24,597 nt of DNA, taken from positions 1-24,597 of the IMG/VR virus record IMGVR_UViG_3300038674_000137; one strand, written 5' to 3'. This document shows positions 4,844 to 24,597 of the stretch, piece by piece (position 1 is the first letter of the stretch; every line of letters starts with the position of its first letter). This DNA is from a virus. Taxonomy: Duplodnaviria; Caudoviricetes. The notes under the pieces are model-generated. The model did not search any database and was not told the DNA's origin. It was given only the letters and a program-made list of their open reading frames with translations. The position numbers and the translations under genes are program-made.

Positions 4844-7800
4844 CTAATCAAGGTTCATATAATATGTCCAATCTGCGGTCTGTATCATAGTAGGCTTTAT
4901 ATCAAAGTAACTCCACCATGTAACGATAAGCTCTCGTACCTCCTTCCACTCTTTCGAGTCAAGACTGAATACACTTTCGTTCATCTTACCCCAGAAGAGT
5001 AACATAGCTTCAAGCTGTATATCTTTCTTACGTTCCTCTTCCCTAAGATTCTCTTTTGAGGGTAATTGATAATAGACACCCCAGTAATCCTCACATTGCC
5101 GGTAGAAAGAAACAAGTTCATCGAACCCATTATCCTCCGTGATAAGAAAATCGGGTATACCTTTCAAGGCAGAAGCATAATCACTGCCAAGGTTAGACAT
5201 TGTATAGTACTTTCCCTTAGCAATCTCTGTTCCAAGAAGCAATACAGCATCTTGAGTCTCCCGTAAAGCTTCTTCATACTCCGTATCCGGTGCTTCTTCC
5301 GTACCTGTAAATACTTTCTGTAAACGTTCAAGTATATCACGTTCAGCTTTCTCAACTTCAGCGGGTTCATACTCATCATCGAGTAGATGTATTAACTTCT
5401 GGAAGAAGCGTCTGTCCATACCATCGGGAGTGTCGGTAGTTGCTTCAAGCACATCGATGAAGATACGGTAGAATCCTACGAAAGTATTGCCATACTGAGA
5501 CATGCCATATGATAAGTCACTCAAAGCCTGCTTCTTATCTTCTTCATCATCCGAAGTAAGGGCTATAAGGGCATTACCTATAATCTCATTAATCGTAGAT
5601 ACGGAACTCATGGCGAGACCCCCCATCTCCCAGTTAAGTATACTTGTAACCGTATACTCTTTATTATCCCCACCGGATAAGGTCATAAGCAGAGAACTTA
5701 GTAAGTCACCCCATAGTGCCATGAAAGCGACATTCTTTATCCCTGTAGCCCTGTCAAGAGGCTTGGACTGCGAACTGAATATCTTACCTACCTGTATAGC
5801 TATCTGCTGAATGTAACTCTTCGGGAAGATTGATAAACTTCCGAGAATACGACCAGCAGAACTCCAATACATCCTTGCAGATGAAGCCATCGAGTACATG
5901 TATAATGCGTCATTAACAGCTTCACTGGCTATTTTCAGACAAGCCGCTTCTGTTCCGGTAAGCGTCTGATTGCCTGGTACTCCCCAATCAACTCTACCCT
6001 TTGTCTCCAGTAATGCAAGGATAGTTTTTCTTTTACCAGAAGCAAGGTCTGCTATACCACTCTTCTTATACCACCAGTCAATGTCTTTATAATGCTTACT
6101 GTTAACATCATGGTACTGTTCACTGGCTTCCATAGCTTTAAGTAAAGCAGCTCTGAATGTGATTAACCTTGAGTATTTATCAGATACAGCCATAGTCGGA
6201 ATCTTCGCACATACCCTTGAAAGAAGCCTTGACGGTGAGTCAGCAAGCTTAACTGGATATAGCACAGCTTTAAGCCATGCGGGTAAGTTATTGCTAACAC
6301 CGGTAACATCTCCATCCAAGAACAAAAAGTCACGCATTTCACTGCCAGACTGGTCAACTCTAGTATCGAAGAATACCGCCGCTTTACTTCGGAAAGCCGG
6401 AGACAGCTTCTTATTCCACATGGAACGGTTAAGAGCCTTAAACAGATAACCCTTGTGTGGGTAAGTAGCAAAAGGCTGCAGTACATTTCTGACGCCTTTA
6501 AAGGGATGCATAAAGACTACCGGATTAGCTCTCCTTAGTACGGCACGTATAGCGTTCACGAAGATGTTACTCGACTCAGGCTTGCCCAAAAGTACACGCT
6601 TATAATCTTTCAGATACTCATTAAACTTCTCTTTATCCGCAATCTTATCGTGCATTACACTGTAGAACTGGTTAAGAGTATCTATCTCCTCTGAAAGAAA
6701 CAGATTCAAACCCATTGAAAGATTGTACGTGTCCAATCTCTTAATGACCCCATCCAACTGACCGAAAGGAATCATATAGTCCTCTCTGGATTCTGTATGC
6801 CTAGTTCCTCTTGTAACATTCCAATCTTCCTCTACAGACTCCAAGGACTTATTCGATACAACATGAGGGTCGTAGAAAGACTGGATAACACCCCATTCGA
6901 CTGTGGATAAGTAACGCCACAAAGCATCTTCTCCTTCACTTTCAAGGGTATCGATAGCTTGCTGTATCTCACCACGAACCACTGTATCTTCTTCTCTTAC
7001 GTGCAGTTTGTCTGCAATATGGTTTACGGTAGGACTCTGCCTGTAATAACGTAAGAATCTCAAAGCACGTACAACCGGCTGCCATTCCTTATAGATAAGG
7101 GTAATTTCATCAGCAAGTAATTTCTCTTCTATGGAAGCCTCAGTCTCAATGCCATTGACAAGGGCTGCAACACGCTGCTGGGCTTCTTTATCCTTTACTA
7201 TGATGTTGAACCCCTTAACTTTCTTTAGACGGCGTAAATAGGCATCCTGCAGTCTCTTGGCGTATTGATAGCCGGTTATCTGGCGGTCATGCAGCATGCT
7301 GAAAGGTAAGCCGGTAGCTTTCTCCAAATCATCAAATACGTAGCGGGTATCCATAACCTGCCATGTCGATTTAAAATGAATCGAGTCATTGGGCAAACGG
7401 GATAGTACGATAAACTGCTGTTCCAATCGAGATAGTTCATACCACGACTTTACAAGTAAGGTATTCTTCGGTAGTCCCGCAGCTTCGGCTATCTTCTGAA
7501 GTCCCTCTAAAGCTATAGCTTTCTGTTCAGGAACTATACTCGTGTCATTAAATACTAACTGGTGGAAGAGAATCAATTCTTGAACGGACTTACTACCTTT
7601 TTCCAATGCAGGATTCTCGTATATATACTTTTCAATATCAGGATTCTCGTCTATAGCCATCTGTTCACGTTCCATAGCAAGCTCAATATCCGGTAAACGA
7701 GTCATACCGGAAGCGTGAACAGGGCTTAAAGAACCCGCATTCTCAAATGCAAACTGTTTTTCTGCTTCTTCACGAGAAGAAAGGATTTCCTCCGTACTCG

Positions 7801-10800
7801 GTTTCTTATGGATACGTTCACTAGGACTACGGAGTACATTATATACGCCAGCTTTGTTTACGCTTAATGGATAGTTCATACTGAAGAAAGCAAAGTCAAC
7901 AGGATTCTCCAAGGTATCACCGTTAAGATACTCAGAGAAGCGATGTACTAACCTTTCGATTATCTCTCTTCCACTGTACTTTTTATTCTCCACTGTATAT
8001 TCAATTTTGGCTATAATACTCACCACACTAGCGTTCTGTATCTCTTCATCCGTAAAGCCCTGTTCTTTCAAGAAAGCTTTAGTAGTAGCACTGAAACCTT
8101 TCATTTCCTTAGCAGTCTGCAGTACTTCATCTAACCGTATATCGATTCCCAGATATGCAGCATAGTCGTTAAGCAAGCTGAAATCACCTTTGGCAGCTTT
8201 GACATACACATAGCTGTGGATAAGTTCATGGAAGAGGGTTATACGATTGATATACTTTGCACTCTTAATACGAAGTACTCCGGTAGTAAATTCGTAATCA
8301 CCGGTAGCTCCCTCCCGTATATTCTCGTCGATAACAACTTCAGATACAAAGATGTCAGTTCGATATGGAAAAGTAGCTAAGATACGAAGCAGTCTTTCAC
8401 GTTCTTTCGGCTTCAGTTTCTTATCAAGTTTAATATTGGCAAAGTCTATCCTATGCTCCTTATTGGCAAGGAAGTCTACATGGCTTTCACGTACTCTGGA
8501 AGCATAAGCAGATAGAGCTTCCATAAGCTCTTTCTTACTTCGTGTATTATTGGATAAAGCTGAAAAGCTTGACAGAGCATAGTTTTTATCTAAGCCATAT
8601 TCCTCACAGAAATTAGTCTTTGTCTGTATTGAAAAGCTTCTCCATAACTTACGAGCCTCTTTTTCTGTTAAGAGGATAGGCTGTCCATCGGTACTCTGAG
8701 ATATGGTGGCTTCCGGAGATATACCTTCCGAGGGTGCTTCTGTTGCTGCAGTTACATCCTTAGCTTTCTTTCTTTTCTTATTTGCGGTTGTTCCCTCTAC
8801 TTTTGCATTTACATCATCCTTTCTGGTTTCTAATTCTATCTTAGCTTTGAGCTTCTTGATTGTCTCGTTATTCTTTTTACGTGCTTCGATAAGATTCGCT
8901 GTAGCACCCTCTTTGGCTTTTATAAGCTCTTCCAAATTTGTAACAGCTTCTCTTGCATTTTCATCACGAGGATTCTTTGCTAAGCGTTCTTTCTGGGTTG
9001 CTAAGCTGCTCTTACAAGCAGTGAGTTCATCGTTAAGCAGCTTTAAGTCAGAAGCAATACCTTTGTTATCCTCTCGCTTAGCTTTGATAGCTTTCTCTAC
9101 ACCGGATATGTTCACAGGTACAACACGCTTTGTTTTCTCAACAGCTATCTCTACCTTTGCACGAGATACAGGTTCTTGCTGTACTTCAGCGGAAGCAATC
9201 GCTTTAGCTTCAGCTTCTTTAAATCCAGCTTTAGCTGCTTCAAGTTCGATAGCAGCCATCTTTGCAATAACTTCTGCATCTAAATAAGCTTCCATCTGGT
9301 TGTATTGTGCTCGTGCTTGTGACATAGCACCAAAGCCACCGGTAGGCAGGGTGAGTAAAGCGGAGGTGAATAAGGAATCTGTTACTCCTTCCCATATCCC
9401 ACGACTTTCGTCAACGGTAGAAATAGCAGCATTTTGAATTATGGTCTGTAAACTTTCAGTAACCATTTCAGAAAGCATAGCAGTAGTAAGGGTCTTGGCA
9501 GCTCCACCGATTATCTTCTTGGTAGTAAGCTCGCTGATTAACTCTTTCGATAACTCTTTCACCACATTCTTCTTAAAGGCAGCTGCAAGTCCTGGGAAGA
9601 TTGTTTTGAGATGAACAAACTCTCCTGCAAAGTCCAGTATACTTATAACAGAACCGGCGGTATTTGAAATCAAGCGAGCTTCACCATCGGTAGCCCCGCT
9701 TGCAATCGCATCATTGTATACGTCACCGATATTCTGGGGGGTAAAGAAGAAACCACCGACAGCAGTACCAGCAATAGGATTGGCTGTCAGAATCGTTGTA
9801 CCGATAGCTAGTGCAGCACCAATGACAGATGGTAAGTTAGCAGCTAAGAAGCCGAGATACCATTGTACCTTACCGGCATTATGCGTAAGACCAGAGAAAG
9901 TATACTCGTAATTCGATACGGTATACTCCGGATTCTCTTTTATCCATTCTGAATATATCTGCCTGTTTCTTTCCATTTGTCGGTCAGCCCATAAACCGGC
10001 GGATGAACCTACAACTTCACCGTAGGCATCTTCTCTACCCTCACCAGCTACGGTTCTTATTAATTCAAGAAAAGCTGTTTTGGAATCGAATACCAGTCTA
10101 TCCCATCTGAATACAATCGTATGCCAGATGTCCTCGTAATCACCCTCATCTCTTTCGTACTCTAAAGCGAGTGACTCGTTATGCTGCGTGTTAAGGAAAG
10201 CGATAGCTTCTGCGGCACTTAACTTCTCATTAGTAGTAGATTCCGGAGATTCAAGGATAGCCCCCCATTCGGAATAAGTCTTACCCTTATAAGTACCCGC
10301 AATCTCCAACTTAGAGGAAGCTTTGCCCAAGGTTACACGTTCATTCTCTGCGTCATAAAAACCTACCTGTTCATTATCTACCCATACAGAACCATCAGTA
10401 CGTAAATGACCGGCGACAGTGTTACCACTTTCGTCATCGGTAAGAAAGATTATATCTCCCTCAATCTGTAGAATCTGTTCATAAATATCGGCTATCTGGT
10501 CTTTAAGAGGCGAGTTCTCATCCACTTCAATACCTAGGTTTCTTATACCGGTAAGGAAAGCTTCCAATGAGCTTTTCACAGCCGTTTCATTACTCACAAG
10601 TACTGTCGAAGGAAAAGCGTCTTGCAAAGCGGAAGTAATGTCAGTAACTTCTCTAGAGAAAGCAACACTGGAAAGAATCTGAGCTGGAGTAAGTTCGGGT
10701 GCATTTTCAGATGCGGATTGTCTGGCTAACTTATCTGCTTCTTCTGTGGTTATCTCTCCGATATTCCACTTATTACCAGATAGTAATTCTTCCTGTGAAG

Positions 10801-11293
10801 CTCCGGCTACACTCTTAGCGTAATCGAACAGCCATTCCTGTTCTTCATCATTGAAATCAAAGCTATCTAAGTGGAAGTAACTGGTTAAAGTTTCAGAGTC
10901 AAGAATAGTCTCGCCTATTAAAGCAAGGTTACGTATAGCATCTTGAATAATGGGAAGAATCCGGTTTACTTTTTGTTTACGAACAAGTTCATCGTATTCC
11001 TCGGTAATAACGGTTAACTGCTTCTGTGCTTCTTCTGGGGTAGCACCGTAGTCAAAACCTGCGGTAGATGGAAGTACTGAAGCTACCTTACCTAATATAC
11101 TGGAATTATTAATAAAGGTACGTGCAACTTTCTCAAAGGGACTGGTTTCTTCCCATACCTCACTCTTAAATTGGAGACTGTAAGCTTTCTCCATTGCAGC
11201 TTTCTGCGCAGATACTTCTTCAAATCTTTTTGCATCCTCTTCCGTGTATAGAGATGGAAAAGCAGGAAAGGCAGTACTTGTAGTATTATCCAT
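4844..11293 (-). CDS. Giant (2149 aa) putative internal virion/ejection protein with a zincin-like HExxH metallopeptidase motif
   Basis: Uninterrupted ORF with SD GGAGG. Acidic N-terminus, Gly/Ala hydrophobic helices at ~aa 480-660, then a coiled coil, then G.Y......I.I.......TLFHELIH (HELIH at 8216-8230), then a long helical C-terminal half. Confidence 0.65.
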   Translation of the reverse strand: MDNTTSTAFPAFPSLYTEEDAKRFEEVSAQKAAMEKAYSLQFKSEVWEETSPFEKVARTFINNSSILGKVASVLPSTAGFDYGATPEEAQKQLTVITEEYDELVRKQKVNRILPIIQDAIRNLALIGETILDSETLTSYFHLDSFDFNDEEQEWLFDYAKSVAGASQEELLSGNKWNIGEITTEEADKLARQSASENAPELTPAQILSSVAFSREVTDITSALQDAFPSTVLVSNETAVKSSLEAFLTGIRNLGIEVDENSPLKDQIADIYEQILQIEGDIIFLTDDESGNTVAGHLRTDGSVWVDNEQVGFYDAENERVTLGKASSKLEIAGTYKGKTYSEWGAILESPESTTNEKLSAAEAIAFLNTQHNESLALEYERDEGDYEDIWHTIVFRWDRLVFDSKTAFLELIRTVAGEGREDAYGEVVGSSAGLWADRQMERNRQIYSEWIKENPEYTVSNYEYTFSGLTHNAGKVQWYLGFLAANLPSVIGAALAIGTTILTANPIAGTAVGGFFFTPQNIGDVYNDAIASGATDGEARLISNTAGSVISILDFAGEFVHLKTIFPGLAAAFKKNVVKELSKELISELTTKKIIGGAAKTLTTAMLSEMVTESLQTIIQNAAISTVDESRGIWEGVTDSLFTSALLTLPTGGFGAMSQARAQYNQMEAYLDAEVIAKMAAIELEAAKAGFKEAEAKAIASAEVQQEPVSRAKVEIAVEKTKRVVPVNISGVEKAIKAKREDNKGIASDLKLLNDELTACKSSLATQKERLAKNPRDENAREAVTNLEELIKAKEGATANLIEARKKNNETIKKLKAKIELETRKDDVNAKVEGTTANKKRKKAKDVTAATEAPSEGISPEATISQSTDGQPILLTEKEARKLWRSFSIQTKTNFCEEYGLDKNYALSSFSALSNNTRSKKELMEALSAYASRVRESHVDFLANKEHRIDFANIKLDKKLKPKERERLLRILATFPYRTDIFVSEVVIDENIREGATGDYEFTTGVLRIKSAKYINRITLFHELIHSYVYVKAAKGDFSLLNDYAAYLGIDIRLDEVLQTAKEMKGFSATTKAFLKEQGFTDEEIQNASVVSIIAKIEYTVENKKYSGREIIERLVHRFSEYLNGDTLENPVDFAFFSMNYPLSVNKAGVYNVLRSPSERIHKKPSTEEILSSREEAEKQFAFENAGSLSPVHASGMTRLPDIELAMEREQMAIDENPDIEKYIYENPALEKGSKSVQELILFHQLVFNDTSIVPEQKAIALEGLQKIAEAAGLPKNTLLVKSWYELSRLEQQFIVLSRLPNDSIHFKSTWQVMDTRYVFDDLEKATGLPFSMLHDRQITGYQYAKRLQDAYLRRLKKVKGFNIIVKDKEAQQRVAALVNGIETEASIEEKLLADEITLIYKEWQPVVRALRFLRYYRQSPTVNHIADKLHVREEDTVVRGEIQQAIDTLESEGEDALWRYLSTVEWGVIQSFYDPHVVSNKSLESVEEDWNVTRGTRHTESREDYMIPFGQLDGVIKRLDTYNLSMGLNLFLSEEIDTLNQFYSVMHDKIADKEKFNEYLKDYKRVLLGKPESSNIFVNAIRAVLRRANPVVFMHPFKGVRNVLQPFATYPHKGYLFKALNRSMWNKKLSPAFRSKAAVFFDTRVDQSGSEMRDFLFLDGDVTGVSNNLPAWLKAVLYPVKLADSPSRLLSRVCAKIPTMAVSDKYSRLITFRAALLKAMEASEQYHDVNSKHYKDIDWWYKKSGIADLASGKRKTILALLETKGRVDWGVPGNQTLTGTEAACLKIASEAVNDALYMYSMASSARMYWSSAGRILGSLSIFPKSYIQQIAIQVGKIFSSQSKPLDRATGIKNVAFMALWGDLLSSLLMTLSGGDNKEYTVTSILNWEMGGLAMSSVSTINEIIGNALIALTSDDEEDKKQALSDLSYGMSQYGNTFVGFYRIFIDVLEATTDTPDGMDRRFFQKLIHLLDDEYEPAEVEKAERDILERLQKVFTGTEEAPDTEYEEALRETQDAVLLLGTEIAKGKYYTMSNLGSDYASALKGIPDFLITEDNGFDELVSFYRQCEDYWGVYYQLPSKENLREEERKKDIQLEAMLLFWGKMNESVFSLDSKEWKEVRELIVTWWSYFDIKPTMIQTADWTYYMNLD

Positions 11294-15195: not shown

Positions 15196-15248
15196 TGCAA
15201 TGACTTGCAATAAATAACGGTTTAGTGTATTCTACCACAAAATACCCC

Positions 15249-15277
15249 TTGACTTGAATCGGATTAAATGCTATAAT
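15249..15277 (+). promoter_or_regulatory. Strong sigma70-type promoter, divergent from the structural operon
   Basis: TTGACT (15249-15254)-N17-TATAAT (15272-15277) with TG at 15269-15270. Confidence 0.8.
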
Positions 15278-15333
15278 AGGATATAAATTGAATGGACTTA
15301 CGTTTAAGTATTTATGATAAAACACCCTATTGT

Positions 15334-15357
15334 ATATATAATATATATATTATATAT
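15334..15357. repeat. Perfect 24-bp pure A/T palindrome
   Basis: ATATATAATATATATATTATATAT is its own reverse complement. Confidence 0.9.
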
Positions 15358-15413
15358 TAGTATAAGAAAATAACCGGTAGAATAAAATTCATGTGTATAA
15401 GTAAGGAGGATAG

Positions 15414-15785
15414 GTGATGAAAGCTTGTAGAATAAAAAATGCGGGGTTAATATGTGCTAAATGCAAGGAAGATATGGATATTGGGTCAATTTCGATTAAG
15501 ACGCTTTACAAGGATGATAAGGGTAAATGGTATTCACACTATTATCATGAAAGTTGCTATGTGTGGAAAGTCGAAAAGGATGTAAAAAGTGCCATATCTG
15601 TCTTGGTAAAGAAAGAGGAGGAGGAGAAAGCGAGTAAAAAACCAGTTGGTAGAGCACGGAAGTACTCGGATACACTGGAAAGTCTGAGAATCAAGTCGAA
15701 GATAAGCTATTATACGAAAAGAGGAAATGTAGAAAAGGTGAAATATCTGAAAAATCAGTTACAGGAGCTTGTTGTGCATGAATAA
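15414..15785 (+). CDS. Putative zinc-binding, basic DNA-binding protein
   Basis: CAKC...HESC ligand set and a basic KKPVGRARK segment. SD AGGAGG. Confidence 0.6.
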   Translation: MMKACRIKNAGLICAKCKEDMDIGSISIKTLYKDDKGKWYSHYYHESCYVWKVEKDVKSAISVLVKKEEEEKASKKPVGRARKYSDTLESLRIKSKISYYTKRGNVEKVKYLKNQLQELVVHE

Positions 15786-16041
15786 GAAGGAATTACACTG
15801 GTGTATCGGGTGGCTTGGAGTCGCTTTCGGGCTTCTAGTAGCACCAATGCAGTTAATCAAGATAGTACAGACCGGAGAAGTCGGGGATATTTCCCTGTTT
15901 ACGTACCTGTTTCTGTGCTTGGCGATGGTCTGTTATCTCGTTGAAGCAATCAGAATCAAAAGTCCAGTGTTTATCACGGCACAAGCCGTAAATCTTGTGG
16001 TAAATAGTGCTGTGCTCGTATTATTAGTAATACTCAGTTAG
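15778..16041 (+). CDS. SemiSWEET / PQ-loop family 3-TM membrane protein (divergent)
   Basis: 87 aa with three hydrophobic helices and the pattern IG.LG........QLIK...T....DIS...............P.FI. Start at ATG 15778 behind AGGAG. Confidence 0.75.
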   Translation: MNKKELHWCIGWLGVAFGLLVAPMQLIKIVQTGEVGDISLFTYLFLCLAMVCYLVEAIRIKSPVFITAQAVNLVVNSAVLVLLVILS

Positions 16042-16213
16042 CATTACAGTACTGCAACTTGAGGAAATTGGCATGTTTTAGCTTTGCGGCGGTACTCTGG
16101 GGCATAACATTATGTCAACCTGTATTTTTACAGGGCAATTTTTCTACGAGGTTACAGTCCTGATTAGTAGGTGGGTTGTGCGCCCAGGTATGGCATACCA
16201 CCCCCCCTCGACA

Positions 16214-16222
16214 TGGTATAAT
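16214..16222 (+). promoter_or_regulatory. Extended -10 promoter
   Basis: TGGTATAAT ~80 nt upstream of ORF 16301. No clear -35. Confidence 0.5.
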
Positions 16223-16300
16223 ATATATGTGGGTAGTGATTCACACCCGCACGTAAGGGTTGCTAGTACCTTAATAACTGAATATTAAAGGAGTACGAAA

Positions 16301-16948
16301 ATGGAAAACACATTATTCGAGTCATTAAGCATTAGTGATTTAGAGGCATTGAAAGGGTTACATCCTGATAACATAGACTTCTGCAAGGCTATTGACGCAC
16401 ACATCCAAGTTAAAAGAAGTTTAGAAGAAAAGCGATTGCTAAAAGAGGCTTTTGAGAATACCTTGTCAAGCATTGTACTGCCAACACCCCCAGAGGGCGT
16501 ATATAACGTCCTGTTCCGATTTGCTGAAGTCACCGAAGAGGACAGAACAAATCCGCCTGAAGAAGTTAAGATTATCGACAGCCCTGCTGTTCGTAATGAG
16601 AATGGTAAAGTTACCACTAAAGAAGTCTCACACATTGAACAGCGGTATCCCTCGATAGTGGTTAAAAAGTGGGTTGTTAAGGTTAACGCCTCTCAAGATG
16701 TAGCAAAGGGCAAAACTACTTCAGCCACGAACACCACCTCAAAGCGAGCTGTTGCGGTTTATAAGCGGAATGCCGATAAAGCAGACGAGTTCATAGGCAA
16801 TTACAAGAACTGCAAGGAATTCACAGAGCAGATGAAAGCGCAGAGCAATAGCCCTGATAACATTAAAAAGTGGGACAGCACGGGTGACTCAGCCACAAGG
16901 GTTGCCGAACGCAACGGCTATTATACCAAGCCTATAGAATCAGTCTAA
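16301..16948 (+). CDS. Hypothetical protein, monocistronic
   Basis: SD AAGGAG, 215 aa, flanked by its own promoter and terminator. The C-terminal segment loosely resembles NUMOD1-type DNA-binding motifs. Confidence 0.75.
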   Translation: MENTLFESLSISDLEALKGLHPDNIDFCKAIDAHIQVKRSLEEKRLLKEAFENTLSSIVLPTPPEGVYNVLFRFAEVTEEDRTNPPEEVKIIDSPAVRNENGKVTTKEVSHIEQRYPSIVVKKWVVKVNASQDVAKGKTTSATNTTSKRAVAVYKRNADKADEFIGNYKNCKEFTEQMKAQSNSPDNIKKWDSTGDSATRVAERNGYYTKPIESV

Positions 16949-16994
16949 CACCAAACACAGGCACAGCCTGAAGTGAATAATCCATCCCAAACAC

Positions 16995-17033
16995 AAACCC
17001 CTCCGTGATACTAGCTAAGCGGAGGGGTTTTTT
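16995..17033 (+). terminator. Rho-independent terminator
   Basis: 11-bp inverted repeat AAACCCCTCCG / CGGAGGGGTTT ending in a T6 run, downstream of ORF 16301-16948. Confidence 0.85.
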
Positions 17034-17226
17034 ATGCCCAGATACCGGTATCTGCGACCATACCGAATCCCGCTTAGTCTGTATTGCTGAGATAAGCAAA
17101 GCAGGAAGATTGAGATTAAGTTGAGAAGCAGTGGAATTAGCTTTGAATCAGATATGAATCCTGTCTGCCGGAAGAGTACCATATCTGCAGTGCGTAATGC
17201 AAAGCTAATGCTGCTTAAAAAAGATA

Positions 17227-17255
17227 TTGACATATCCCACGAGCTAGCTTAGGAT
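17227..17255 (+). promoter_or_regulatory. Sigma70-type promoter for the small-ORF cluster
   Basis: TTGACA (17227-17232)-N17-TAGGAT (17250-17255). Confidence 0.65.
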
Positions 17256-17347
17256 GGAATTAGGATTGAATAAGGGAGGGAGTATGTAACAAGAGTATAT
17301 CAATAGCTGGCAATTTAAACTGGTAATTTAAAAAGGAGAAGTGGATT

Positions 17348-17518
17348 ATGAAATTATACTACCACAAGACAAGCGGCGGAGCTGAATATCTAACGGATAC
17401 TTATACTGTATGTCTCAACGGCGATAAAGAGGGTACATTCACAAACAAAACAAAGTATATTATCAGGATTGACGGCGATATTCGTAAGAATGCTGAATTA
17501 ATAATAAAGGAGAAGTAA
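17348..17518 (+). CDS. Hypothetical 56-aa protein (not in ORF track)
   Basis: SD AAGGAG. MKLYYHKTSGGAEYLTDTY...IIKEK; its stop abuts the next ATG. Confidence 0.7.
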   Translation: MKLYYHKTSGGAEYLTDTYTVCLNGDKEGTFTNKTKYIIRIDGDIRKNAELIIKEK

Positions 17519-17638
17519 ATGGATAATAAGGAATTTAATAAGCAAGGCAATATTTATACACTTAACCGACTCTTAAGGGAAGGTAAAATCACACAGGAGC
17601 AATATGACAAACGAATGGATATTATAGAGCAATCATAA
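17519..17638 (+). CDS. 39-aa SHOCT-like peptide (not in ORF track)
   Basis: SD AAGGAG. MDNKEFNKQGNIYTLNRLLREGKITQEQYDKRMDIIEQS matches the L..L...G.IT.E.Y pattern. Confidence 0.65.
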   Translation: MDNKEFNKQGNIYTLNRLLREGKITQEQYDKRMDIIEQS

Positions 17639-17709
17639 TAGGCTATAAATGAGCTAGTAATTAGCTCAGTTGTGAGCCGGAGATACCGGACACACAGGAG
17701 GAGAAGAAA

Positions 17710-18003
17710 ATGGATAATACCTCGAATGATTTAAGCTATGACGCTGCTACGATAGACCTCGAATCTGTTCGTATCGTGTCAGGTTATACAACTCAAATGC
17801 TTGCAGCTAGTATCGGAAAGACTGCAAGAAAGATAATGGATTTAAATGTGTCTGACAATATGATTTGTATTCTGGTTAGGGATATAGGAAGAGAACAGAA
17901 GATAATGAGCATTGCCGCTGAATTAGCTTTAACCTCTTCCAAAGCTTTTGACAGAAGTAATATAACAGTAACTAAGGAAAGTAAATTGAAGGAGAATAAG
18001 TAA
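17710..18003 (+). CDS. Hypothetical protein
   Basis: SD AGGAGG; TAATG coupling to the next ORF. Confidence 0.7.
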   Translation: MDNTSNDLSYDAATIDLESVRIVSGYTTQMLAASIGKTARKIMDLNVSDNMICILVRDIGREQKIMSIAAELALTSSKAFDRSNITVTKESKLKENK

Positions 18004-18392
18004 TGAATAAATGTAATTCAACGCACGTTACCCAGCACTGTGTCGAAGCAGATGGAAAGACGTTCAGAACACACTGCATTATATGTGGAGAACCCGCCGA
18101 CCCGTTTGTGAGTTGCAGGGAGCAGCTCTTAGAAACTGGTCTTGATGAAGAACTCGTCAAGTCTCTGACGGATGCCGAAGTACTCGTAGCTGCTAAGTAT
18201 GTGGATACAGAATTTACCTCTGCAGTAGGGGGTGAAGTTGTCAAGCTCATCATCGAGCAATTCCATAGTAATTCCTGCATAATAACTGAGGATTATATCC
18301 AAGTAATACTGGATAGTATCTACTCAGAATTGTCAGACCTTATCTCTGAAGCAATATACTACTGTATCCATGATGAAAATAACGAGAAGTAA
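18003..18392 (+). CDS. Hypothetical protein with an N-terminal zinc-ribbon-like motif
   Basis: SD AAGGAG; C...H ... CIICG. Confidence 0.7.
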   Translation: MNKCNSTHVTQHCVEADGKTFRTHCIICGEPADPFVSCREQLLETGLDEELVKSLTDAEVLVAAKYVDTEFTSAVGGEVVKLIIEQFHSNSCIITEDYIQVILDSIYSELSDLISEAIYYCIHDENNEK

Positions 18393-18395
18393 ATT

Positions 18396-18593
18396 ATGTT
18401 TATGAAAGAAAAGCGGGGCAATATTATCATCTGGAAACGTGCGTACATCTGTGCCAAGCGGATTCGTGGGAGACTGGTATGGTGTTATATGAATAAACAC
18501 TTCTGTACTGTCCATACATGCAAAATATGTAACAAGAAGTATATCTTGGATGACGCTGATATTCTTAGAAAGAGGGGGGTAATAAAGTACTGA
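18396..18593 (+). CDS. Small basic Cys-rich protein
   Basis: Five Cys including CKIC. Fills the operon gap, but the SD is weak. Confidence 0.5.
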   Translation: MFMKEKRGNIIIWKRAYICAKRIRGRLVWCYMNKHFCTVHTCKICNKKYILDDADILRKRGVIKY

Positions 18594-18688
18594 TGAAGAA
18601 CAGTGTACTACTGGATATTATTATCGGACTATGCTTTATACTCTGCTTTATGATTATATTTGGCATAGGTTTCGGGTTATTAGATTAA
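18593..18688 (+). CDS. 31-aa single-transmembrane peptide (not in ORF track)
   Basis: TGATG coupling and a G-rich SD. MKNSVLLDIIIGLCFILCFMIIFGIGFGLLD. Confidence 0.6.
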   Translation: MKNSVLLDIIIGLCFILCFMIIFGIGFGLLD

Positions 18689-18699
18689 AGGAGTGAATA

Positions 18700-18912
18700 A
18701 TGAAGAGTGAACTGACCGAGAAAATTAAGTGGAATATCAGAATTATTCTGACATGCCCGAACACCAATCAGGATGTAACTGTATCGGCGTATGATACTGT
18801 GCACGCTAACCAGGTTAAGTGCGAGCTGTGCGGTACACATGGGGAGATATACATAAGATTTAAATGTGTCCTGTGCGGAAAAGAACATAGAGTTTCCATA
18901 TCACGGTGGTAA
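18700..18912 (+). CDS. Small zinc-ribbon protein
   Basis: SD AAGGAG; CP, CELCG.H and CVLCGKEH. Confidence 0.75.
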   Translation: MKSELTEKIKWNIRIILTCPNTNQDVTVSAYDTVHANQVKCELCGTHGEIYIRFKCVLCGKEHRVSISRW

Positions 18913-19094
18913 AGGAGGTACATACTTTGAGAAATCAATGCTTTGTTTGCTATATGTATGACTGTATCGAAAGGAAGAAAGCAGTCGTAGACAGAAAATG
19001 CTGCAGATTGTGCGGAATACGAATGTCTTGTAAGGAATACAAAGGAGGAAGATTATATGTGTGCAACGAATTTAAATCAGAACAAGGAAAGTAA
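18906..19094 (+). CDS. Small Cys-rich protein (8 Cys)
   Basis: CFVC....C, CCRLC, C, C. Start uncertain. Confidence 0.55.
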   Translation: MVKEVHTLRNQCFVCYMYDCIERKKAVVDRKCCRLCGIRMSCKEYKGGRLYVCNEFKSEQGK

Positions 19095-19293
19095 AGAGAA
19101 GTACCGGCTACCGAATTTTTATAGTGGAGATGTCGAATGTGTAGCTGATACTCCAGAAGAACTGGTGAAGTACGTTCAAGAAAAAAGAGGAGAGCTTATG
19201 GGAGAAGCAGTCTATGAAATTTTTTATGGTTTACATCTGTCAACTACAAGTTTCTGGGAAAAAGTATTTAATAAAGGAGTGAATAATGGATAG
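19057..19293 (+). CDS. Hypothetical protein
   Basis: SD AGGAGG upstream; overlaps its neighbours in operon fashion. Confidence 0.6.
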   Translation: MCATNLNQNKESKEKYRLPNFYSGDVECVADTPEELVKYVQEKRGELMGEAVYEIFYGLHLSTTSFWEKVFNKGVNNG

Positions 19294-19645
19294 AATAACT
19301 TTGAATCCAAAGTATGGTCTTAATCCAACTATAGCAGTATGTATTATCTGCAAGAAAGAAAAAGACATGATTGTGTTACTGGGCAATACTTGTGAGGAAC
19401 AAGCACCAATGCACTCTGTCATTGACTTTGAACCTTGTCCGGAGTGCAGGGAAAAGTATTTAAAGAACGGAGTTATGCTTATAGAGTTCCGTAATGATAA
19501 CAAGACATATGTTGTAGCTGTCATTACAGAAACTGCTTTCAAGCGTCTCTTTAGCTCTGAAGTTCCGGCTGGTCGTATAGCTATAGTCGAACCAGGAACA
19601 TTCAGACAACTTGGTATAACAGAAGCCACGATAAAGGCGGGCTAA
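19286..19645 (+). CDS. Phage hypothetical zinc-binding protein
   Basis: SD AAGGAG. PKYGLNP....CIIC ... EPCPEC is a pattern recurrent in phage early proteins. Confidence 0.75.
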   Translation: MDRITLNPKYGLNPTIAVCIICKKEKDMIVLLGNTCEEQAPMHSVIDFEPCPECREKYLKNGVMLIEFRNDNKTYVVAVITETAFKRLFSSEVPAGRIAIVEPGTFRQLGITEATIKAG

Positions 19646-19657
19646 TAGGAGAATAAA

Positions 19658-19873
19658 ATGGGTAAAGCAAAGAGATTACATCGGGAAGCAGTACAAGCAG
19701 GTACAGAAAAGCCATTCAAACAGCCGATATGTACAGCTTTGGTTTATACTTGCGGGAAATGCGGTGACTCAGTAGGGGAGACAATGGTTCGAGACCATAT
19801 TCGTGACTGCTGGAAATACCCCATCAAGGATGATGAGCCTATACCTACTGAAGTAAAGCGAGGTATGGTTTGA
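19658..19873 (+). CDS. Small zinc-finger protein (C2HC-like)
   Basis: SD AGGAG; CGKCG.........HIRDC. Confidence 0.7.
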   Translation: MGKAKRLHREAVQAGTEKPFKQPICTALVYTCGKCGDSVGETMVRDHIRDCWKYPIKDDEPIPTEVKRGMV

Positions 19874-20049
19874 AAGCAAAGCTGCAAGTAAATGTTATGT
19901 ACTGTTGTGGCTGTGGTTTCAGAACGCTGTTCGTAGATACAGCAAAGGAACATGCTAACAAAGAGGGGCATACGTTAACAGCTACAGGGTGTATACGCCC
20001 CCTCAGTAAATGCGTGCCGAAAGGAAATTATGATAAAGAGAGTTATTAA
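19870..20049 (+). CDS. 59-aa C2H2-like zinc-finger protein (not in ORF track)
   Basis: TTG start overlapping the upstream TGA, SD GAGGT. CGCGF.......A.EH....GH. Confidence 0.6.
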   Translation: MKAKLQVNVMYCCGCGFRTLFVDTAKEHANKEGHTLTATGCIRPLSKCVPKGNYDKESY

Positions 20050-20224
20050 ATGCTCAGTATGCGGAGAAGCTGCGATTTTAGATAGCAGTTTGTCTGGAAA
20101 GTTTAATCAGTATTACTTCTGTGAAAGACACCATCACATTACAACTGTTATTCCAGACTATAATGAACCGGATAAATTGGCGGATAATCTTACGGAGGTG
20201 GAAATAAATGAAATATTAAAATAG
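20030..20224 (+). CDS. Small zinc-ribbon protein
   Basis: CSVCG ... YFCERHHH. Confidence 0.65.
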   Translation: MIKRVIKCSVCGEAAILDSSLSGKFNQYYFCERHHHITTVIPDYNEPDKLADNLTEVEINEILK

Positions 20225-20248
20225 CTTTGAACTCCTTTAAGGAGTATA

Positions 20249-20277
20249 TTGACAACACCTATGAGAACCCTTATATT
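20249..20277 (+). promoter_or_regulatory. Sigma70-type promoter of the ubiquitin-like operon
   Basis: TTGACA (20249-20254)-N17-TATATT (20272-20277), preceded by the inverted repeat ACTCCT-TTA-AGGAGT (20231-20245). Confidence 0.75.
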
Positions 20278-20343
20278 AGCTTTGTGTGTGGTAGATAGGT
20301 GAACAGCCTAAAATTAAAACTGCCATACCAAGAGGAGAAACAA

Positions 20344-20682
20344 ATGGAAATCGACAACATTCCTAATTCTGAACCGGTAGAGAGAGAAGTATTTGATATT
20401 ACTTTCACAGAAGTAACTGAAGAAACACCTGCTTTTGGGGAAAGTTTACCGGTAGTTCAGACCGAACAAGTATTCATTGAAACAGGTAGAGGAAACGCTG
20501 TTCCTGTTACTATCGGGAGTCCTTTCGTTCCCACCATTGCCGACATCGCCAACCATGCTAACTATGGCAGAAACTTCAGAGTATTCCTCAATGGTTCGGA
20601 AATCCTCAATCCGTCTGAAGCACCTGAGGTAATTCAGGCTAATCATCGCATCGTCCTGACCCCTTATGATAAAGTCGGGTAA
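20344..20682 (+). CDS. Ubiquitin-like (beta-grasp) protein with an acidic N-terminal extension, ending ...PYDKVG
   Basis: Start at ATG 20344 behind GAGGAG. The ~70-aa C-terminal domain has a strand-strand-helix-strand (FRVFLNG)-strand (RIVLTP) pattern and a terminal Gly. First gene of an operon with E1 and JAB. Confidence 0.75.
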   Translation: MEIDNIPNSEPVEREVFDITFTEVTEETPAFGESLPVVQTEQVFIETGRGNAVPVTIGSPFVPTIADIANHANYGRNFRVFLNGSEILNPSEAPEVIQANHRIVLTPYDKVG

Positions 20683-20742
20683 GTATATCGCTTAGCTGGT
20701 GAAAGTGTACGCATAAGTAGCCAGCTAATGAAAGGAGTTTAT

Positions 20743-21741
20743 ATGTCTTTAAGAAATAAAGAAGTGAGTAATGCTCTAGATTTACTTAACATCAGTCATG
20801 CTGTTGTTCTTGGAGTACATGAGAACTGTCCTTATGAGTCTAACTGTCCCCTGTCTATATCCCTTAGACGTATTGTAGCTGAAAGTGGCGTAACACTGGA
20901 AGCAATCGAAGAGACGCTTCATACCTACAATGAAAGAGCAGAAACACTCTTCCCAAATCCAGCAATTAGAGCTATTTCAGAAGAACTTGAACTCAATGTT
21001 ATGGGTGCGCTCGTAAAAGTACCTATCGAACAGTGTACAGAGTTACCACGAAAGCTTAAAGAGGGGTTAATACTGAAGATGAAACAGCTTGATGACGAGA
21101 TACAAAGAGTATTTGATTATACTTTATCTATACAAGCAGCTTATACCAGAGAAAGATTTCTTGTACGGAATACTCAGAAACTAATAATGCTGGATTATAA
21201 TCCAGTTATGTCTGAATCAGAAGGACTGTTCGTATATGCCAAAGACAACTGCTATAATATAGCTTTTAACCTCAAGTACAATCCTCAGTATATCATAGAT
21301 AATGGGGAAAGATACGAGATTTTAAAAGCTTATGAGCCCAGTCTCAAGCATGACTGGAAGCTGGTCTTTACCATAACCGCCGACTTTATGCTAGTCAAGG
21401 CTACTGTTATGGACAGGTACTACCAGAAGATGGTGCATTATCACGGAACAGCTTCTAGAGACTGTTGGGGTTCGATACGTATTGAGGGAACATGGGATAG
21501 GAGTATGGAGACGTTACGCAGGAAGAAAGCAGAACTAGAGGGAGCATTAACCACGATAAATTATAATAGTCTGTATACAAGGAATCCTGCGGGTATGCCA
21601 CCGATTGATGATTTACGAAGAACTGCTACGAAACTCGGAAGAGAGGGAGGAGAGGTTACACGAGTTCGGAGAAGTACACGTACTCTGCCGGTAGCTCCTG
21701 TAGCTAATACATGGGGAGAACTGATAGACAATGTTAGCTGA
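20743..21741 (+). CDS. Putative prokaryotic E2-like conjugating enzyme with an N-terminal helical extension
   Basis: Start at ATG 20743 behind AAGGAG. A beta-rich region is followed by HYHGTASRDCWG (Cys codon 21463-21465), equivalent to the E2 HPx...C.G active site, then helix-L..IN..S. Lies between the Ubl and E1 genes. Confidence 0.6.
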   Translation: MSLRNKEVSNALDLLNISHAVVLGVHENCPYESNCPLSISLRRIVAESGVTLEAIEETLHTYNERAETLFPNPAIRAISEELELNVMGALVKVPIEQCTELPRKLKEGLILKMKQLDDEIQRVFDYTLSIQAAYTRERFLVRNTQKLIMLDYNPVMSESEGLFVYAKDNCYNIAFNLKYNPQYIIDNGERYEILKAYEPSLKHDWKLVFTITADFMLVKATVMDRYYQKMVHYHGTASRDCWGSIRIEGTWDRSMETLRRKKAELEGALTTINYNSLYTRNPAGMPPIDDLRRTATKLGREGGEVTRVRRSTRTLPVAPVANTWGELIDNVS

Positions 21742-22387
21742 AGTATATGATAGACAACATTCACTGGAACTCAACATACCGGATGCTATTACTATAGTTG
21801 GAGTTGGAGGTATCGGTACATGGGTAGCTATTTACGCTGCTATGACAGGGGTAAAGAATATCTTTATCTTTGACCCAGACAATCTGGAAGTTACCAACCT
21901 GAACCGTCTACCTTTCTGTGAATACAGTGTAGGACAGCCAAAGGTTAATCTTGTAGTAGATTATGTACGTTCTATCAGACCGGACTGTAATATCATTGGT
22001 GTAGCCAGTAAGCTTGAGGGTATTCTTAAGAATCTGCAAATAGTAATGGGATACCCTGTTATTGAATGTACGGATTCGCCGAAGAGTCAGATAGAACTGT
22101 ATAAAGAATGTGTTGCTCGTGGTATTCCTTTCATCAGAGCTGGTTATGATGGTACACACATCACTGTTACCTCCAATGTATCTGGATGGGTACAAGCGGA
22201 TGATGAAGAACGAGCTACATATACCTTTAATCCTAGTTGGGTAGTTCCAGCATCGATTGTGGCAGCTTTGGCAGTAGCGAAGCTGTGTAAGTTTACGAAT
22301 CAGGAGGTATGTACAGACCTAAGCGAGATAGGCATACCGCAATTAAAGAAGAGTCAACCTCGAGTAAGTAACAGATGCAGGCAGTAA
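21731..22387 (+). CDS. ThiF/E1-family adenylating (Ubl-activating) enzyme
   Basis: YDRQ arginine finger, IVGVGGIG nucleotide-binding loop, FDPD.LE.TNLNR and ECTDS. Overlaps the upstream stop. Confidence 0.92.
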   Translation: MLAEVYDRQHSLELNIPDAITIVGVGGIGTWVAIYAAMTGVKNIFIFDPDNLEVTNLNRLPFCEYSVGQPKVNLVVDYVRSIRPDCNIIGVASKLEGILKNLQIVMGYPVIECTDSPKSQIELYKECVARGIPFIRAGYDGTHITVTSNVSGWVQADDEERATYTFNPSWVVPASIVAALAVAKLCKFTNQEVCTDLSEIGIPQLKKSQPRVSNRCRQ

Positions 22388-22420
22388 TATGTCTGCTAAA
22401 AAATAAAAAGGAGAAATATT

Positions 22421-23155
22421 ATGTGGGAAAATAAAGAGTATAAAGGCAATCTGCAGGCGTGTTCGCTTGCACCACTACCCAGAATACATGTAGCTAGAGA
22501 AGTGCTTGATAAAATAGAGATGTTAATGGATAGGTATCCCAGTACAGAATGGGTAGGGTATCTAACCGGAAATACTCAGAACAAAGAGCATTACTATATA
22601 ACAGGAATCAGTATCCCACCTCATGTGTCAAGGGGAAAAGCTTATGCGGAAGTAAAACCCCTGCATCAGCCGGATAACTGTATTGGATTAATCCACAGTC
22701 ACAACTCTATGGGTGCTTTCCATAGCGCAGTAGATAACGATTACGTAGACGATAACTACACCATATCATGTACTGTATCCAAAAAAATTAACAGCCATAC
22801 TGACTTCAGTACAATCGTAAATGTAATTACGCCCTGTAACCGGAACGTACAATACCACAATGTTATGCTTGAAACCGAAAGCAAGGAATCGGTTTATGCT
22901 GAATGGCTTGAAGAAGCAGTAGCAAATATCGAAATGGGTAGTCCTGATTACATTATCAGTAAGCAGTATATACACAGCTTAGGGCTTCCTGTTTACCCCG
23001 AAGAACCTACCCACGATAGTACAACAGAAGCACATTTCCAGTATACGGATGGAGAAGATACAGTTACGGTAACACCATTAACCGGAACAGTACATCCTGA
23101 AGACATAGAAAAGCGTAATAGAACTGTATTCTTTGATAAGAGAAAAAAGAAGTAA
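22421..23155 (+). CDS. JAB/JAMM (MPN+) metallo-isopeptidase
   Basis: EWVGYL plus HSHNSMGAFHSAVD (22694-22735) form a complete E...HxH-x7-S-x2-D JAMM motif. SD AAGGAG. Confidence 0.9.
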   Translation: MWENKEYKGNLQACSLAPLPRIHVAREVLDKIEMLMDRYPSTEWVGYLTGNTQNKEHYYITGISIPPHVSRGKAYAEVKPLHQPDNCIGLIHSHNSMGAFHSAVDNDYVDDNYTISCTVSKKINSHTDFSTIVNVITPCNRNVQYHNVMLETESKESVYAEWLEEAVANIEMGSPDYIISKQYIHSLGLPVYPEEPTHDSTTEAHFQYTDGEDTVTVTPLTGTVHPEDIEKRNRTVFFDKRKKK

Positions 23156-23199
23156 GCACAGCATACATCAAAGCTGATAGCGGCGTGAATAGTGTATGA

Positions 23200-23560
23200 G
23201 GCAAGAGGGGTTAGAACGTGAATGTCGATTAACACATCTGCCGATAGCCAGCAAGTTAATATGAATACAGTTGGCTGGTGTCCTTGAGGGAGCGTCACCG
23301 AAAGGCAGACCCCGAATATCGGAGTGAAGGTGAAACTAACCGAGCCAGCTAATTGTAGAGCTTACTGGGGTAAACTGAGCTGCGTGCCAGTATCCAGTAA
23401 GCGAAATGCCACACAGATGAAATGGCTATGGGCAGCCAGCACAATAATAGAAAGCTGTGTAAGTCAGTAGGTGCTGGCACAGTGCAGAGGGGGGTATCCA
23501 AAAGAGCAATCTGCGGGGATATTTTAGTGAAGGTGTAAGCCCTTCTAAGCCCCTCCTGTC
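23200..23560 (+). ncRNA. Candidate large structured ncRNA with a tRNA-like terminal domain
   Basis: No plus-strand ORF of 60 aa or more. At least six mutually compatible helices with G-U wobbles on the plus strand, including end-to-end pairing (see findings). Confidence 0.7.
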
Positions 23561-23582
23561 AAATAGGAAAGGAGAAAAGAAG

Positions 23583-23681
23583 ATGAACAAAATAAAATAC
23601 CCTTTTAAAGAATGCTTAAAATGTTCCAGCAAAAAGGAATGTTTAAAGAAGCCGAAATGTTTAGCAGGCAAGGATATTTAG
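23583..23681 (+). CDS. 32-aa Cys/Lys-rich peptide (not in ORF track)
   Basis: SD AAGGAG. MNKIKYPFKECLKCSSKKECLKKPKCLAGKDI. Confidence 0.55.
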   Translation: MNKIKYPFKECLKCSSKKECLKKPKCLAGKDI

Positions 23682-23693
23682 AGGAGTTAAGTA

Positions 23694-24098
23694 ATGGATA
23701 AACAGGAAGAACAAACAGAATCAGAATTTGGTAAAGGGTTAGTAATCTGTTTAGTTAAATTTGCGGAACATCGATGGAGATGGTATGAACAGAAGCGTTC
23801 GTATGAAGAAATGAGTATAAAGAATCCAGAATTATTTTCCGAAAGCGATGCTGTAGAATTGCATTTCAATGGGGCTTCCGACCATTTATATGAGATTGAA
23901 GTTCCTAAAGCATGGGAAGATACATCCATTGGCATTAAAGTAAAAGAATTACAGGACTTTGGATTACAAATTGGACACGGTTTTACTCATAGGAATTGGA
24001 CTGAATCTGATGTAAATAAGGCTTATGAATTATGCCAAGAAATCGCACTATTGATTGATGAAAAACTAGGATTAAAACCCTTAAAAGGCAGTTGGTGA
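23694..24098 (+). CDS. Hypothetical protein
   Basis: SD GAGGAG; 134 aa, predicted helical. Confidence 0.75.
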   Translation: MDKQEEQTESEFGKGLVICLVKFAEHRWRWYEQKRSYEEMSIKNPELFSESDAVELHFNGASDHLYEIEVPKAWEDTSIGIKVKELQDFGLQIGHGFTHRNWTESDVNKAYELCQEIALLIDEKLGLKPLKGSW

Positions 24099-24106
24099 GG
24101 TGATAG

Positions 24107-24597
24107 ATGTACATAAATAGAAAGACAGGGGAAAGGGTAGAAGTAAAACGAGTTGATGAGCATATAATGGCTGTGAATGACGGTAATGATGGTTGGCTAT
24201 CAATAACAATGGCAAACTTCAACGAGCAATATGGAGAGGCTATGATATGCCAACACAAATGTCCTGATTTATCTGATTGTGGCGGGAATCATAATATCCC
24301 CCATATTAAAAATAGATGGTGTGCAGAAGGGTGTTTTGGTTATCCCTGTATTCCCTATATCCCCGAAGAACAGAAAGCAGACAATGAGCCTGTATTCCCT
24401 GTTTGTGGTACTTGTAATGCACGGAAAGATGCTAACGCCTGTGATACACAAGGTAATCTAGGCGGTACTAAAGAGCCTAAGCCTAATCTCTTGTTATCAG
24501 ATGAGGAGATAAGGGAACTAATCAGGGTAGGATTATCTAAGGATTGGGTAGTAATGGAATACTCAAAACTATTACTACAAAATGAGCTAGACCACCT
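24107..24597 (+). CDS. Cys-rich hypothetical protein, truncated by the window end
   Basis: SD GAGGTG. Open frame MYINRKTGERVEVK... runs to the end of the window without a stop. Confidence 0.7.
   Translation, partial: MYINRKTGERVEVKRVDEHIMAVNDGNDGWLSITMANFNEQYGEAMICQHKCPDLSDCGGNHNIPHIKNRWCAEGCFGYPCIPYIPEEQKADNEPVFPVCGTCNARKDANACDTQGNLGGTKEPKPNLLLSDEEIRELIRVGLSKDWVVMEYSKLLLQNELDH

Follow-up and report, generated by a model that had tools for sequence, protein, structure and literature searches.

The gap behind a ThiF and JAB-like operon of a tailed phage contains what sequence comparison identifies as a real RNA motif, supported by covariation and lying outside Rfam. This motif, here named the core (module A; plus strand, 23266..23357; 92 nt), is smaller and more widespread than the first-pass annotation, made from the letters of the window, had thought. 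It was found in 36 copies in 33 loci, window included, in viral contigs and in one prophage-like genome contig. The window is the whole stretch of DNA analyzed here, a 24.6-kb virus record (24,597 nt) with a CheckV completeness of 56%.

Gene setting of the RNA region

The minus strand of the window carries the terminase and major capsid genes, and the plus strand carries, in order, small early-type ORFs followed by Ubl-like, E2-like, ThiF, and JAB-like genes. The RNA region fills the 427-nt gap between the stop of the JAB-like gene (23155) and the start of a 32-aa ORF (23583).

20344..20682, plus strand: Ubl-like ORF, 112 aa, C-terminal Gly, syntenic in relatives
20728..21741, plus strand: E2-like ORF, 337 aa
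21731..22387, plus strand: ThiF/E1-like gene, firm match to PF00899 (E 4.9e-26)
22421..23155, plus strand: gene for a JAB-like peptidase, 5' of the array (Prok-JAB match at E 1.1e-4, which falls below the curated Pfam cut-off)
23583..23681, plus strand: 32-aa Cys/Lys-rich ORF with an SD, 23 nt 3' of the array, no terminator between them

The Ubl label is a lead only, drawn from the translated ORF: a Pfam match was not found, and its atlas neighbor has ThiS in 10% of its members (score 0.86). The E2 label is also a lead only, the ORF being placed with the atlas Prok-E2_D cluster at 0.85 (39% of members), with TM values of 0.35/0.46 against UQ_con, under the threshold. The window resembles the prokaryotic Ubl-E1-E2-JAB operons of PMC1779556 in its upstream genes, that is, ThiF and a JAB-like gene, with Ubl-like and E2-like leads; the passages of that paper on these operons mention no RNA. 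The window RNA, by contrast, is not a fixed operon part.

A ThiF profile search yielded 165 loci, 13 of which (L001-L009 and L086-L089) are close relatives with ThiF identities of 52-58% and, over the stretch that each locus covers, an unchanged gene order. The RNA had been described as lying directly behind the JAB gene and possibly co-occurring with the operon. Behind JAB it was found in 0 of 11 syntenic loci (10 distinct), where ordinary genes stand, so that the RNA region is no fixed JAB partner; the core was nevertheless present just behind the Ubl gene in 4 of the 13 syntenic loci. In L001, L008, and L009, no more than 11 nt separate the Ubl stop from the start of a long-insert core, the distance being 92 nt in L086.

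Several further observations concern this clade and the rest of the window. The clade of about 40-45-kb tailed phages (window 20344-23155; L001-L009, L086, L088) keeps the Ubl-like/E2-like/ThiF/JAB-like operon beside the terminase region, with about 95 ThiF relatives at 50-60% identity. At the site behind the Ubl gene, L004-L007 and L088 carry other stem-closed structured modules without the core, those of L005 and L006 beginning with a common GCUGG-U stem. In L001 (8144-8340), the core insert is complementary to downstream sequence over a long stretch, with a terminator-like hairpin following, and this alternative helix could disrupt the core in a switch-like manner. A 2149-aa ORF (4844-11293, minus strand) between the portal-like and capsid genes gave no Pfam or PHROG matches, an 87-aa PQ-loop-like membrane protein (15778-16041) gave a weak Pfam match, and a 215-aa gene (16301-16948) has relatives in either orientation in syntenic phages. 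The 134-aa ORF at 23694-24098 is skipped by contigs of run X6 (window 23715-24095), with joint sides of only 26-30 nt, and thus looks like an optional cassette gene. Sigma-70-type promoter-like sites were found in the window, which point to a bacterial host.

Structure of the intergenic region as a whole

The first-pass annotation had read positions 23200-23560 as one RNA of about 360 nt. All seven helices that it listed were found in the sequence at the positions given: 23238-50/23423-35 (12 of 13 pairs), 23266-78/23345-57 (13/13, two of them G-U), 23360-68/23394-402 (9/9), 23435-42/23471-78 (8/8), 23484-88/23510-14 (5/5), the T-arm-like hairpin 23529-23545 (5/5), and the end-to-end stem 23200-23213/23546-23560, which has 12/14 pairs when counted without a bulge. 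RNAfold assigns the plus strand an energy of -127.9 kcal/mol (z -4.18, with none of 100 shuffles as good) and the minus strand a z of -3.50; 25 same-size tiles in 15200-24450 ranged from z +2.35 to -2.71 versus -3.9 for the region (20 shuffles each). The sole plus-strand ATG frame (23422-23538, 38 aa) has neither an SD nor a Pfam match, and an X6 contig shows ten short gaps across 23496-23547, most of them within this frame. The reading as a plus-strand, noncoding structured RNA was borne out. As had also been stated, no terminator-like site lies between JAB and the RNA region, which is therefore probably co-transcribed with the upstream operon.

23200..23213, plus strand: alternative 5' strand (end-to-end stem), pair probability 0.25, no homologue found
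23238..23435, plus strand: window-specific helix, 12/13 bp, that encloses the core together with the hairpin behind it, most pairs having a probability of about 1.0

When the full intergenic region is treated as an ensemble, pair probabilities are mostly 0.8-1.0 in the three inner helices and in 23435/23478 (one terminal pair, 0.09), 0.29 in the 23484/23514 helix, and 0.05 in the T-arm-like hairpin.

We consider it quite unlikely that the region acts as a single nested RNA of 360 nt, closed end to end, with a tRNA-like corner and the core as a built-in domain. The nested end-to-end fold has a lower energy than the fold with local closure of the 3' module (-138.6 vs -134.1 kcal/mol, about 4.5 better), the 12-bp enclosing helix, with a probability of about 1, is the longest enclosing helix among the 36 copies, and the T-arm-like hairpin is retained in a contig of run X9. 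Against this, a homologue of the whole was not found, the X9 sequence upstream of the core differs, and the end-to-end stem, unproven, reaches a probability of only 0.25, its 3' strand (23546-23560) being able to close locally instead (23484-23560) at a size typical of the D modules described below. The enclosing helix of 23238..23435 has no conserved counterpart in other core copies: a helix around the core was absent in 20 of the 36 copies and amounted to 6-10 bp at scattered positions in 15. Searches with nhmmer and blastn of a 401-nt region against the 165 ThiF loci found no homologue, and four other sub-regions of the 360 nt gave no nhmmer match below E 0.49. The proposed tmRNA/GOLLD/ROOL-like unit of 360 nt was not upheld, as only the 92-nt core has homologues.

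A tmRNA is recognized by its G3-U70 pair, T-loop consensus, CCA end, and tag frame. The window region is like tmRNA in measuring about 360 nt end to end and in having a 5-bp/7-nt hairpin ahead of its 3' strand; unlike tmRNA, it has none of these four features, its end-to-end unit is not conserved, and it gave no Rfam or ARAGORN match. In keeping with the earlier suggestion of a possibly distinct class, Rfam, with its GOLLD, ROOL, and OLE families, returned 0 matches in the window at the gathering score (4 weak unrelated matches at E up to 10) and ARAGORN returned none; raiA (RF03072) gave no match in the window at E up to 10. On the homologous loci, Rfam matched only a tRNA and one weak unrelated element. 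Apparent similarities of parts of the region to RNase P, raiA, cobalamin, twister-sister, and rRNA segments were rejected, having no Rfam backing and not being kept across copies.

The core is a stem-closed pseudoknot

Alignment of the copies defines a fold with the helix order P1-pk-P3-pk'-P3'-P1':

23266-23279/23344-23357, plus strand: closing stem P1, topped by U23279.G23344
23280..23330, plus strand: unpaired G23280-U23281, then the pseudoknot helix 23282-23285 (CCUU)/23327-23330 (AAGG), assessed with a fixed-rule pseudoknot test
23286..23317, plus strand: variable loop 1 with a CC-GAAA-GG hairpin, not conserved, 7-45 nt among copies
23318..23343, plus strand: A23318, helix P3 (UCGG 23319-23322/CCGA 23340-23343), and the purine-rich loop UGAAA 23331-23335

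Judged from these alignments, the core is an H-type pseudoknot that a stem closes off, and its two loops vary freely in length, reaching up to 212 nt. The second free loop measures 17-61 nt in 33 copies and 92, 128, 174, and 212 nt in the long copies (four counted), and ends in the 3' pseudoknot strand and the purine-rich loop; the pseudoknot itself varies from 2 to 6 bp. The unit as a whole spans 60-110 nt, with minimal copies of about 60 nt, and reaches about 250 nt with inserts. The internal CC-GAAA-GG tetraloop reported in the first-pass annotation is indeed present, but it lies in variable loop 1 and is not conserved. This loop is identical in a contig of run X9. The same annotation had overlooked, within 23279-23344, both the UCGG/CCGA helix and the pseudoknot, and the RNAfold minimum-energy fold also fills the core interior differently from the conserved fold.

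P3 is seen in all copies, yet it was required by the search patterns and the descriptor, and the "invariant" innermost letters were imposed by the search for most copies; support was therefore drawn from unselected positions. With shuffle controls that ignore relatedness, pairing is seen in 135 of 155 cells at the free outer positions of P1 (97.2 when shuffled) and in 26 of 31 at the next, unselected P3 pair, the extension (17.0 when shuffled; 31 copies in each case); under the same controls, the pseudoknot test, which applies one rule to true and swapped partners, gave 119 versus 98.3 +- 5.3, a value reached in 0 of 3000 shuffles, or 103 versus 82.4 +- 5.0 counting Watson-Crick pairs only. 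The second pseudoknot pair is C-G in 23 copies, U-A in 5, U-G in 3, and A-U in 1, with 2 unpaired and 2 having no anchor. Double-change cells numbered 64 versus 32.2 shuffled, and the covariation score was 0.229 versus 0.104 shuffled and 0.037-0.095 when slid (30 rows for both, two of which are chance rows). In L001, which was not picked by a pattern, the otherwise fixed top of P1 is changed on both sides, and U.G becomes C-G. Compensatory changes in these alignments thus support the closing stem, the near-invariant UCGG/CCGA helix, and the pseudoknot. In the covariation check suggested for the region, shuffling supported P1, the P3 extension, and the pseudoknot of the core; the helices around the core have no conserved counterparts. 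The fixed sequence of the helix, together with its fixed unpaired GU and A neighbors, suggests base triples and a tertiary surface.

Distribution of the core

Pattern scans of viral contigs gave 1 true homologue among at least 80 matches, then a second among 58, and a third scan gave 27 true rows among 72 (one near-duplicate and two earlier contigs included); the near-duplicate, L359, was excluded from the core count. Patterns that took the CC-GAAA-GG hairpin or the 3' stem as their basis were rejected, their matches being chance in 2 of 2, 6 of 6, 8 of 8, and 79 among at least 80 cases. Across 72 sources, a model of the core (R1) scored 28 matches at E values under 1e-6, of which 26 were its own seeds, and it recovered copies outside all patterns, namely the syntenic L008 and L086 and second copies in two records. 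Copies with long inserts were added by inspection and with a relaxed descriptor. In the syntenic phages, 6 nonpattern copies were found in 173 kb (13 loci), all on the gene strand; as a background, the relaxed descriptor gave 3 chance-like matches over the 2.0 Mb of the remaining ThiF loci and 2 over 244 kb of chance loci.

Among contigs of seven sequencing runs, an X9 contig matches 23274-23322 exactly, with a different sequence upstream. A second X9 contig matches from 23548 onward, with a 5-bp/7-nt hairpin of different stem just before, and an X6 contig aligns with 23473-23698, its interior (23496-23547) being changed. The 32-aa ORF is near-identical in the X6 and X9 contigs, along with the array 3' end.

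In genomes, pattern scans gave 0 real matches of 8, then 1 of 13 (L433, E 9e-11), located on a 177-kb MAG contig, in a prophage-like stretch of the RecT type, with cellular genes further on. This RecT/MBL/replication-initiator stretch (G078:C3, about 17400-23500) holds a core-B-D array, in a MAG labeled Nitrososphaeria. None of 151 genomes from the class to which G077 belongs yielded the core. Relatives of the terminase large subunit (TerL) were seen at 44% in 1 of 301 genomes and, partially, at 36% in another, matches that are too weak for a host assignment. Searches for loci by a single protein, JAB or ThiF, gave 0 loci, and blastn against cultured phages gave only chance matches of 20-30 nt. 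One candidate, L170, was rejected as an unrelated structured RNA in a phage tRNA array; it is an unannotated element of about 70 nt (1476-1560) with 0 Rfam matches.

An array of stem-closed modules

The core either stands by itself or is followed by other, recurring stem-closed modules (57-116 nt), many of which have its GG-U/G-CC closure and some of which are tRNA-like. Behind the core, we recognized module B in 7 of 36 copies, C in 2, and D (closure GG-U/A-G-CC, 57-92 nt) in 10, so that a B, C, or D neighbor was present in only 14 of the 36; in the antisense control, D gave 0, and the B and C descriptors fired equally on the antisense strand. The order core-B-D is found in L433, L372, and L344. 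The window has the order core, hairpin, B-like stem, and D-like stem:

23360..23402, plus strand: 9-10-bp hairpin module directly 3' of the core, no homologue found
23435..23478, plus strand: B-like module, closed by an 8-bp stem, GCCAGC../..GCUGGC, inside which lies a 4-bp/7-nt hairpin (23454-23468)
23484..23560, plus strand: D-like module, 77 nt, stem 23484-23495/23549-23560 with GG-U/A-G-CC closure, T-arm-like hairpin 23529-23545 inside
20692..20728, plus strand: 37-nt mini module with GG-U/A-G-CC closure, directly behind the Ubl-like gene

The B-like closing stem of the window resembles the B module of those 7 copies, but the window copy has no small GAAA hairpin of the family type and was not called by the descriptor. 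For the D-like module, the X6 contig retains both stem strands around its changed interior. The T-arm-like hairpin has one covarying homologue, in run X9, which stands at the corresponding position and differs throughout its stem; in the window, the pair probability of the hairpin is the 0.05 given above. A held-out model (R2) gave 23484-23560 as its top match in the window at E 2.8 and found 1 of 3 held-out D members, and the strict D descriptor placed the window module in another register (23488-23546). Covariation of the D stem is seen across its 10 seeds, which were chosen for pairing. The GG-U/A-G-CC closure with at least 9 pairs occurs 6 times on the sense and 0 times on the antisense strand in the syntenic loci and the window, a count that includes descriptor seeds for the syntenic group, and 11 and 9 times in other loci.

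Transfer RNAs were found in 2 of 26 loci, with a tRNA-Met 5 nt behind the core in L357. L351 carries, 10-80 nt behind the core, a tRNA-like element in which acceptor-like, D-like, and T arms are combined with an anticodon-like loop of 8 nt; ARAGORN did not call this element, whose T-stem equals that of the window.

The conserved unit is comparable with other phage RNAs. Like GOLLD, ROOL, and raiA as presented in the passages of PMC12286853, the core is an intergenic structured RNA of phages and prophages, sometimes beside tRNAs; it differs in the size of its conserved unit, 60-110 nt (up to about 250 with inserts) and not 200-800 nt. UG27 units are copies of one fold of about 150 nt tied to a reverse transcriptase, according to passages of bioRxiv 10.64898/2026.09.22.753630. 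The present arrays share with them variable intergenic structured units in phages that are gained and lost, some with a pseudoknot, but the modules here differ from each other, and a reverse transcriptase was found neither in the window (56% complete) nor among the recurring neighbors of the core.

Placement relative to genes and alternative functions

The copies of the core are intergenic and lie on the gene strand. By mechanical ORF calls, 15 of 30 begin within 20 nt of an upstream stop, and the distance to the next start ranges from 9 to 717 nt with differing downstream genes; in L228, the core stands alone in an 80-nt gap. Its position before unrelated genes at such variable distances argues against a gene-specific riboswitch. 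A role as small-molecule aptamer, either a riboswitch or a nucleotide-signal sponge, seems very improbable. In SAM-II and preQ1-type folds, the ligand pocket combines a fixed helix and fixed unpaired bases in an H-type knot, and the sequence-fixed helix of the core, flanked by fixed unpaired bases, resembles such pockets; however, a common downstream gene and an expression platform are both missing.

Always being on the gene strand within long early operons, the core could instead act in cis, either as an antiterminator or as a nuclease-blocking knot stabilizing the downstream mRNA, a role to which we attach rather little probability on the sequence evidence. The put and EAR elements are antiterminators of this kind. 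Four of the syntenic phages have a long-insert copy behind the gene that opens the Ubl operon, three of them at the short distance from the stop given above, and promoter-like sites lie at most 400 nt upstream in 4 of 31 copies. Most copies, however, have no nearby promoter, and the window core is 3 kb from the promoter-like site at 20249; there is no constant overlap with a terminator or RBS, and the core, found in only 4 of 13 syntenic loci, looks dispensable.

The core may also be a putative new class of small self-cleaving ribozyme, a stem-closed H-type pseudoknot of 60-110 nt spread over a broad group of uncultured phages, which would cut early polycistronic mRNA between genes or release neighboring modules from the cassette. 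We regard this as unlikely, while observing that the core often stands directly behind stop codons, is bound to no single gene, lies 5 nt ahead of the tRNA in L357, and tolerates inserts of 92-212 nt on a minimal copy of about 60 nt. The hammerhead core consists of the strands CUGANGA and GAAA; the CUGANGA strand was not found in the alignment of the copies, and hammerheads, permuted forms included, gave 0 Rfam matches. The helices of HDV form a nested double pseudoknot, unlike the core, which is a single stem-closed H-type knot. In about half of the copies, a short CC/GG-type pseudoknot is followed by a CGAA-like loop, as in HDV-like and theta ribozymes, but among the 34 anchored copies, the loop begins behind the pseudoknot with C in 18 cases, G in 10, and U in 6, so that the would-be catalytic cytosine is often G or U and there is no fixed cytosine of the HDV type. 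Such a C at the first J4/2 position is required and invariant in HDV-like and theta ribozymes in the passages of PMC10879173, RNAs that the core resembles in being small, pseudoknotted, and phage-encoded, with one copy adjoining a tRNA; unlike in theta, that copy is 5' of the tRNA. The core fits the description of ribozyme candidates in the passages of PMC10085705 (a length of 50-80 nt with conserved positions and covariation, and either a pseudoknot or a junction of several stems), in which, however, 0 of 10 nonhammerhead candidates cleaved. Furthermore, no known ribozyme was found near the copies in 20 loci at the gathering score or in 14 loci at E up to 2 (overlapping sets).

The core gave 0 matches in the supplement portions of PMC10085705 and in four of the six text supplements of PMC10690425, whose remaining files may hold alignments. 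The fold is new with respect to Rfam and the literature searched and could sit unnamed in a large candidate list.

A proposed cassette of decoy modules

The reading that we favor, tentatively, is that the region is an early-transcript cassette of protein-binding or decoy RNA modules, in which separate stem-closed modules would be grouped around the 92-nt pseudoknotted core. The modules would likely be transcribed with the early operon, as suggested by the missing terminator behind JAB, and a nuclease reading their common GG-U/G-CC stem closure would likely excise them. A closure common to modules with different interiors indeed suggests a common signal for processing or binding. Once freed, the modules would likely be compact protein-binding decoys acting against host proteins, and in the core, the invariant helix and the unpaired GU and A are predicted to form base triples and thereby a fixed three-dimensional surface. 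Counting against the modular reading are the better energy of the nested fold, by about 4.5 kcal/mol, the length of the 12-bp enclosing helix, unequaled among the 36 copies, the E 2.8 of the D-like part and the 1 of 3 held-out members found with model R2, and the lack of a homologue for the flanking parts of the window.

A comparable protein-bound RNA is YrlA with Ro60. The 3' module shares with it a closing stem and a T-arm-like hairpin, and tRNA-like RNAs occur in some arrays; unlike that system, the arrays gave no YrlA match, and none of the 9 syntenic records (41-90% complete) carried a Ro60/TROVE gene, which was present in 1 of 12 further core-bearing records and in 3 of 29 records overall, with none in the window. 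With no TROVE in the syntenic records, no phage-encoded binding partner is in sight.

In conclusion, a compact RNA fold outside Rfam, backed by covariation, recurs between the genes of these phages. Should the core cleave, it would add to the known ribozyme classes; should the modules prove to be excised decoys, the early regions of phages would contain mix-and-match RNA cassettes, which would represent a layer of host takeover or counter-defence that protein-centered annotation has overlooked.
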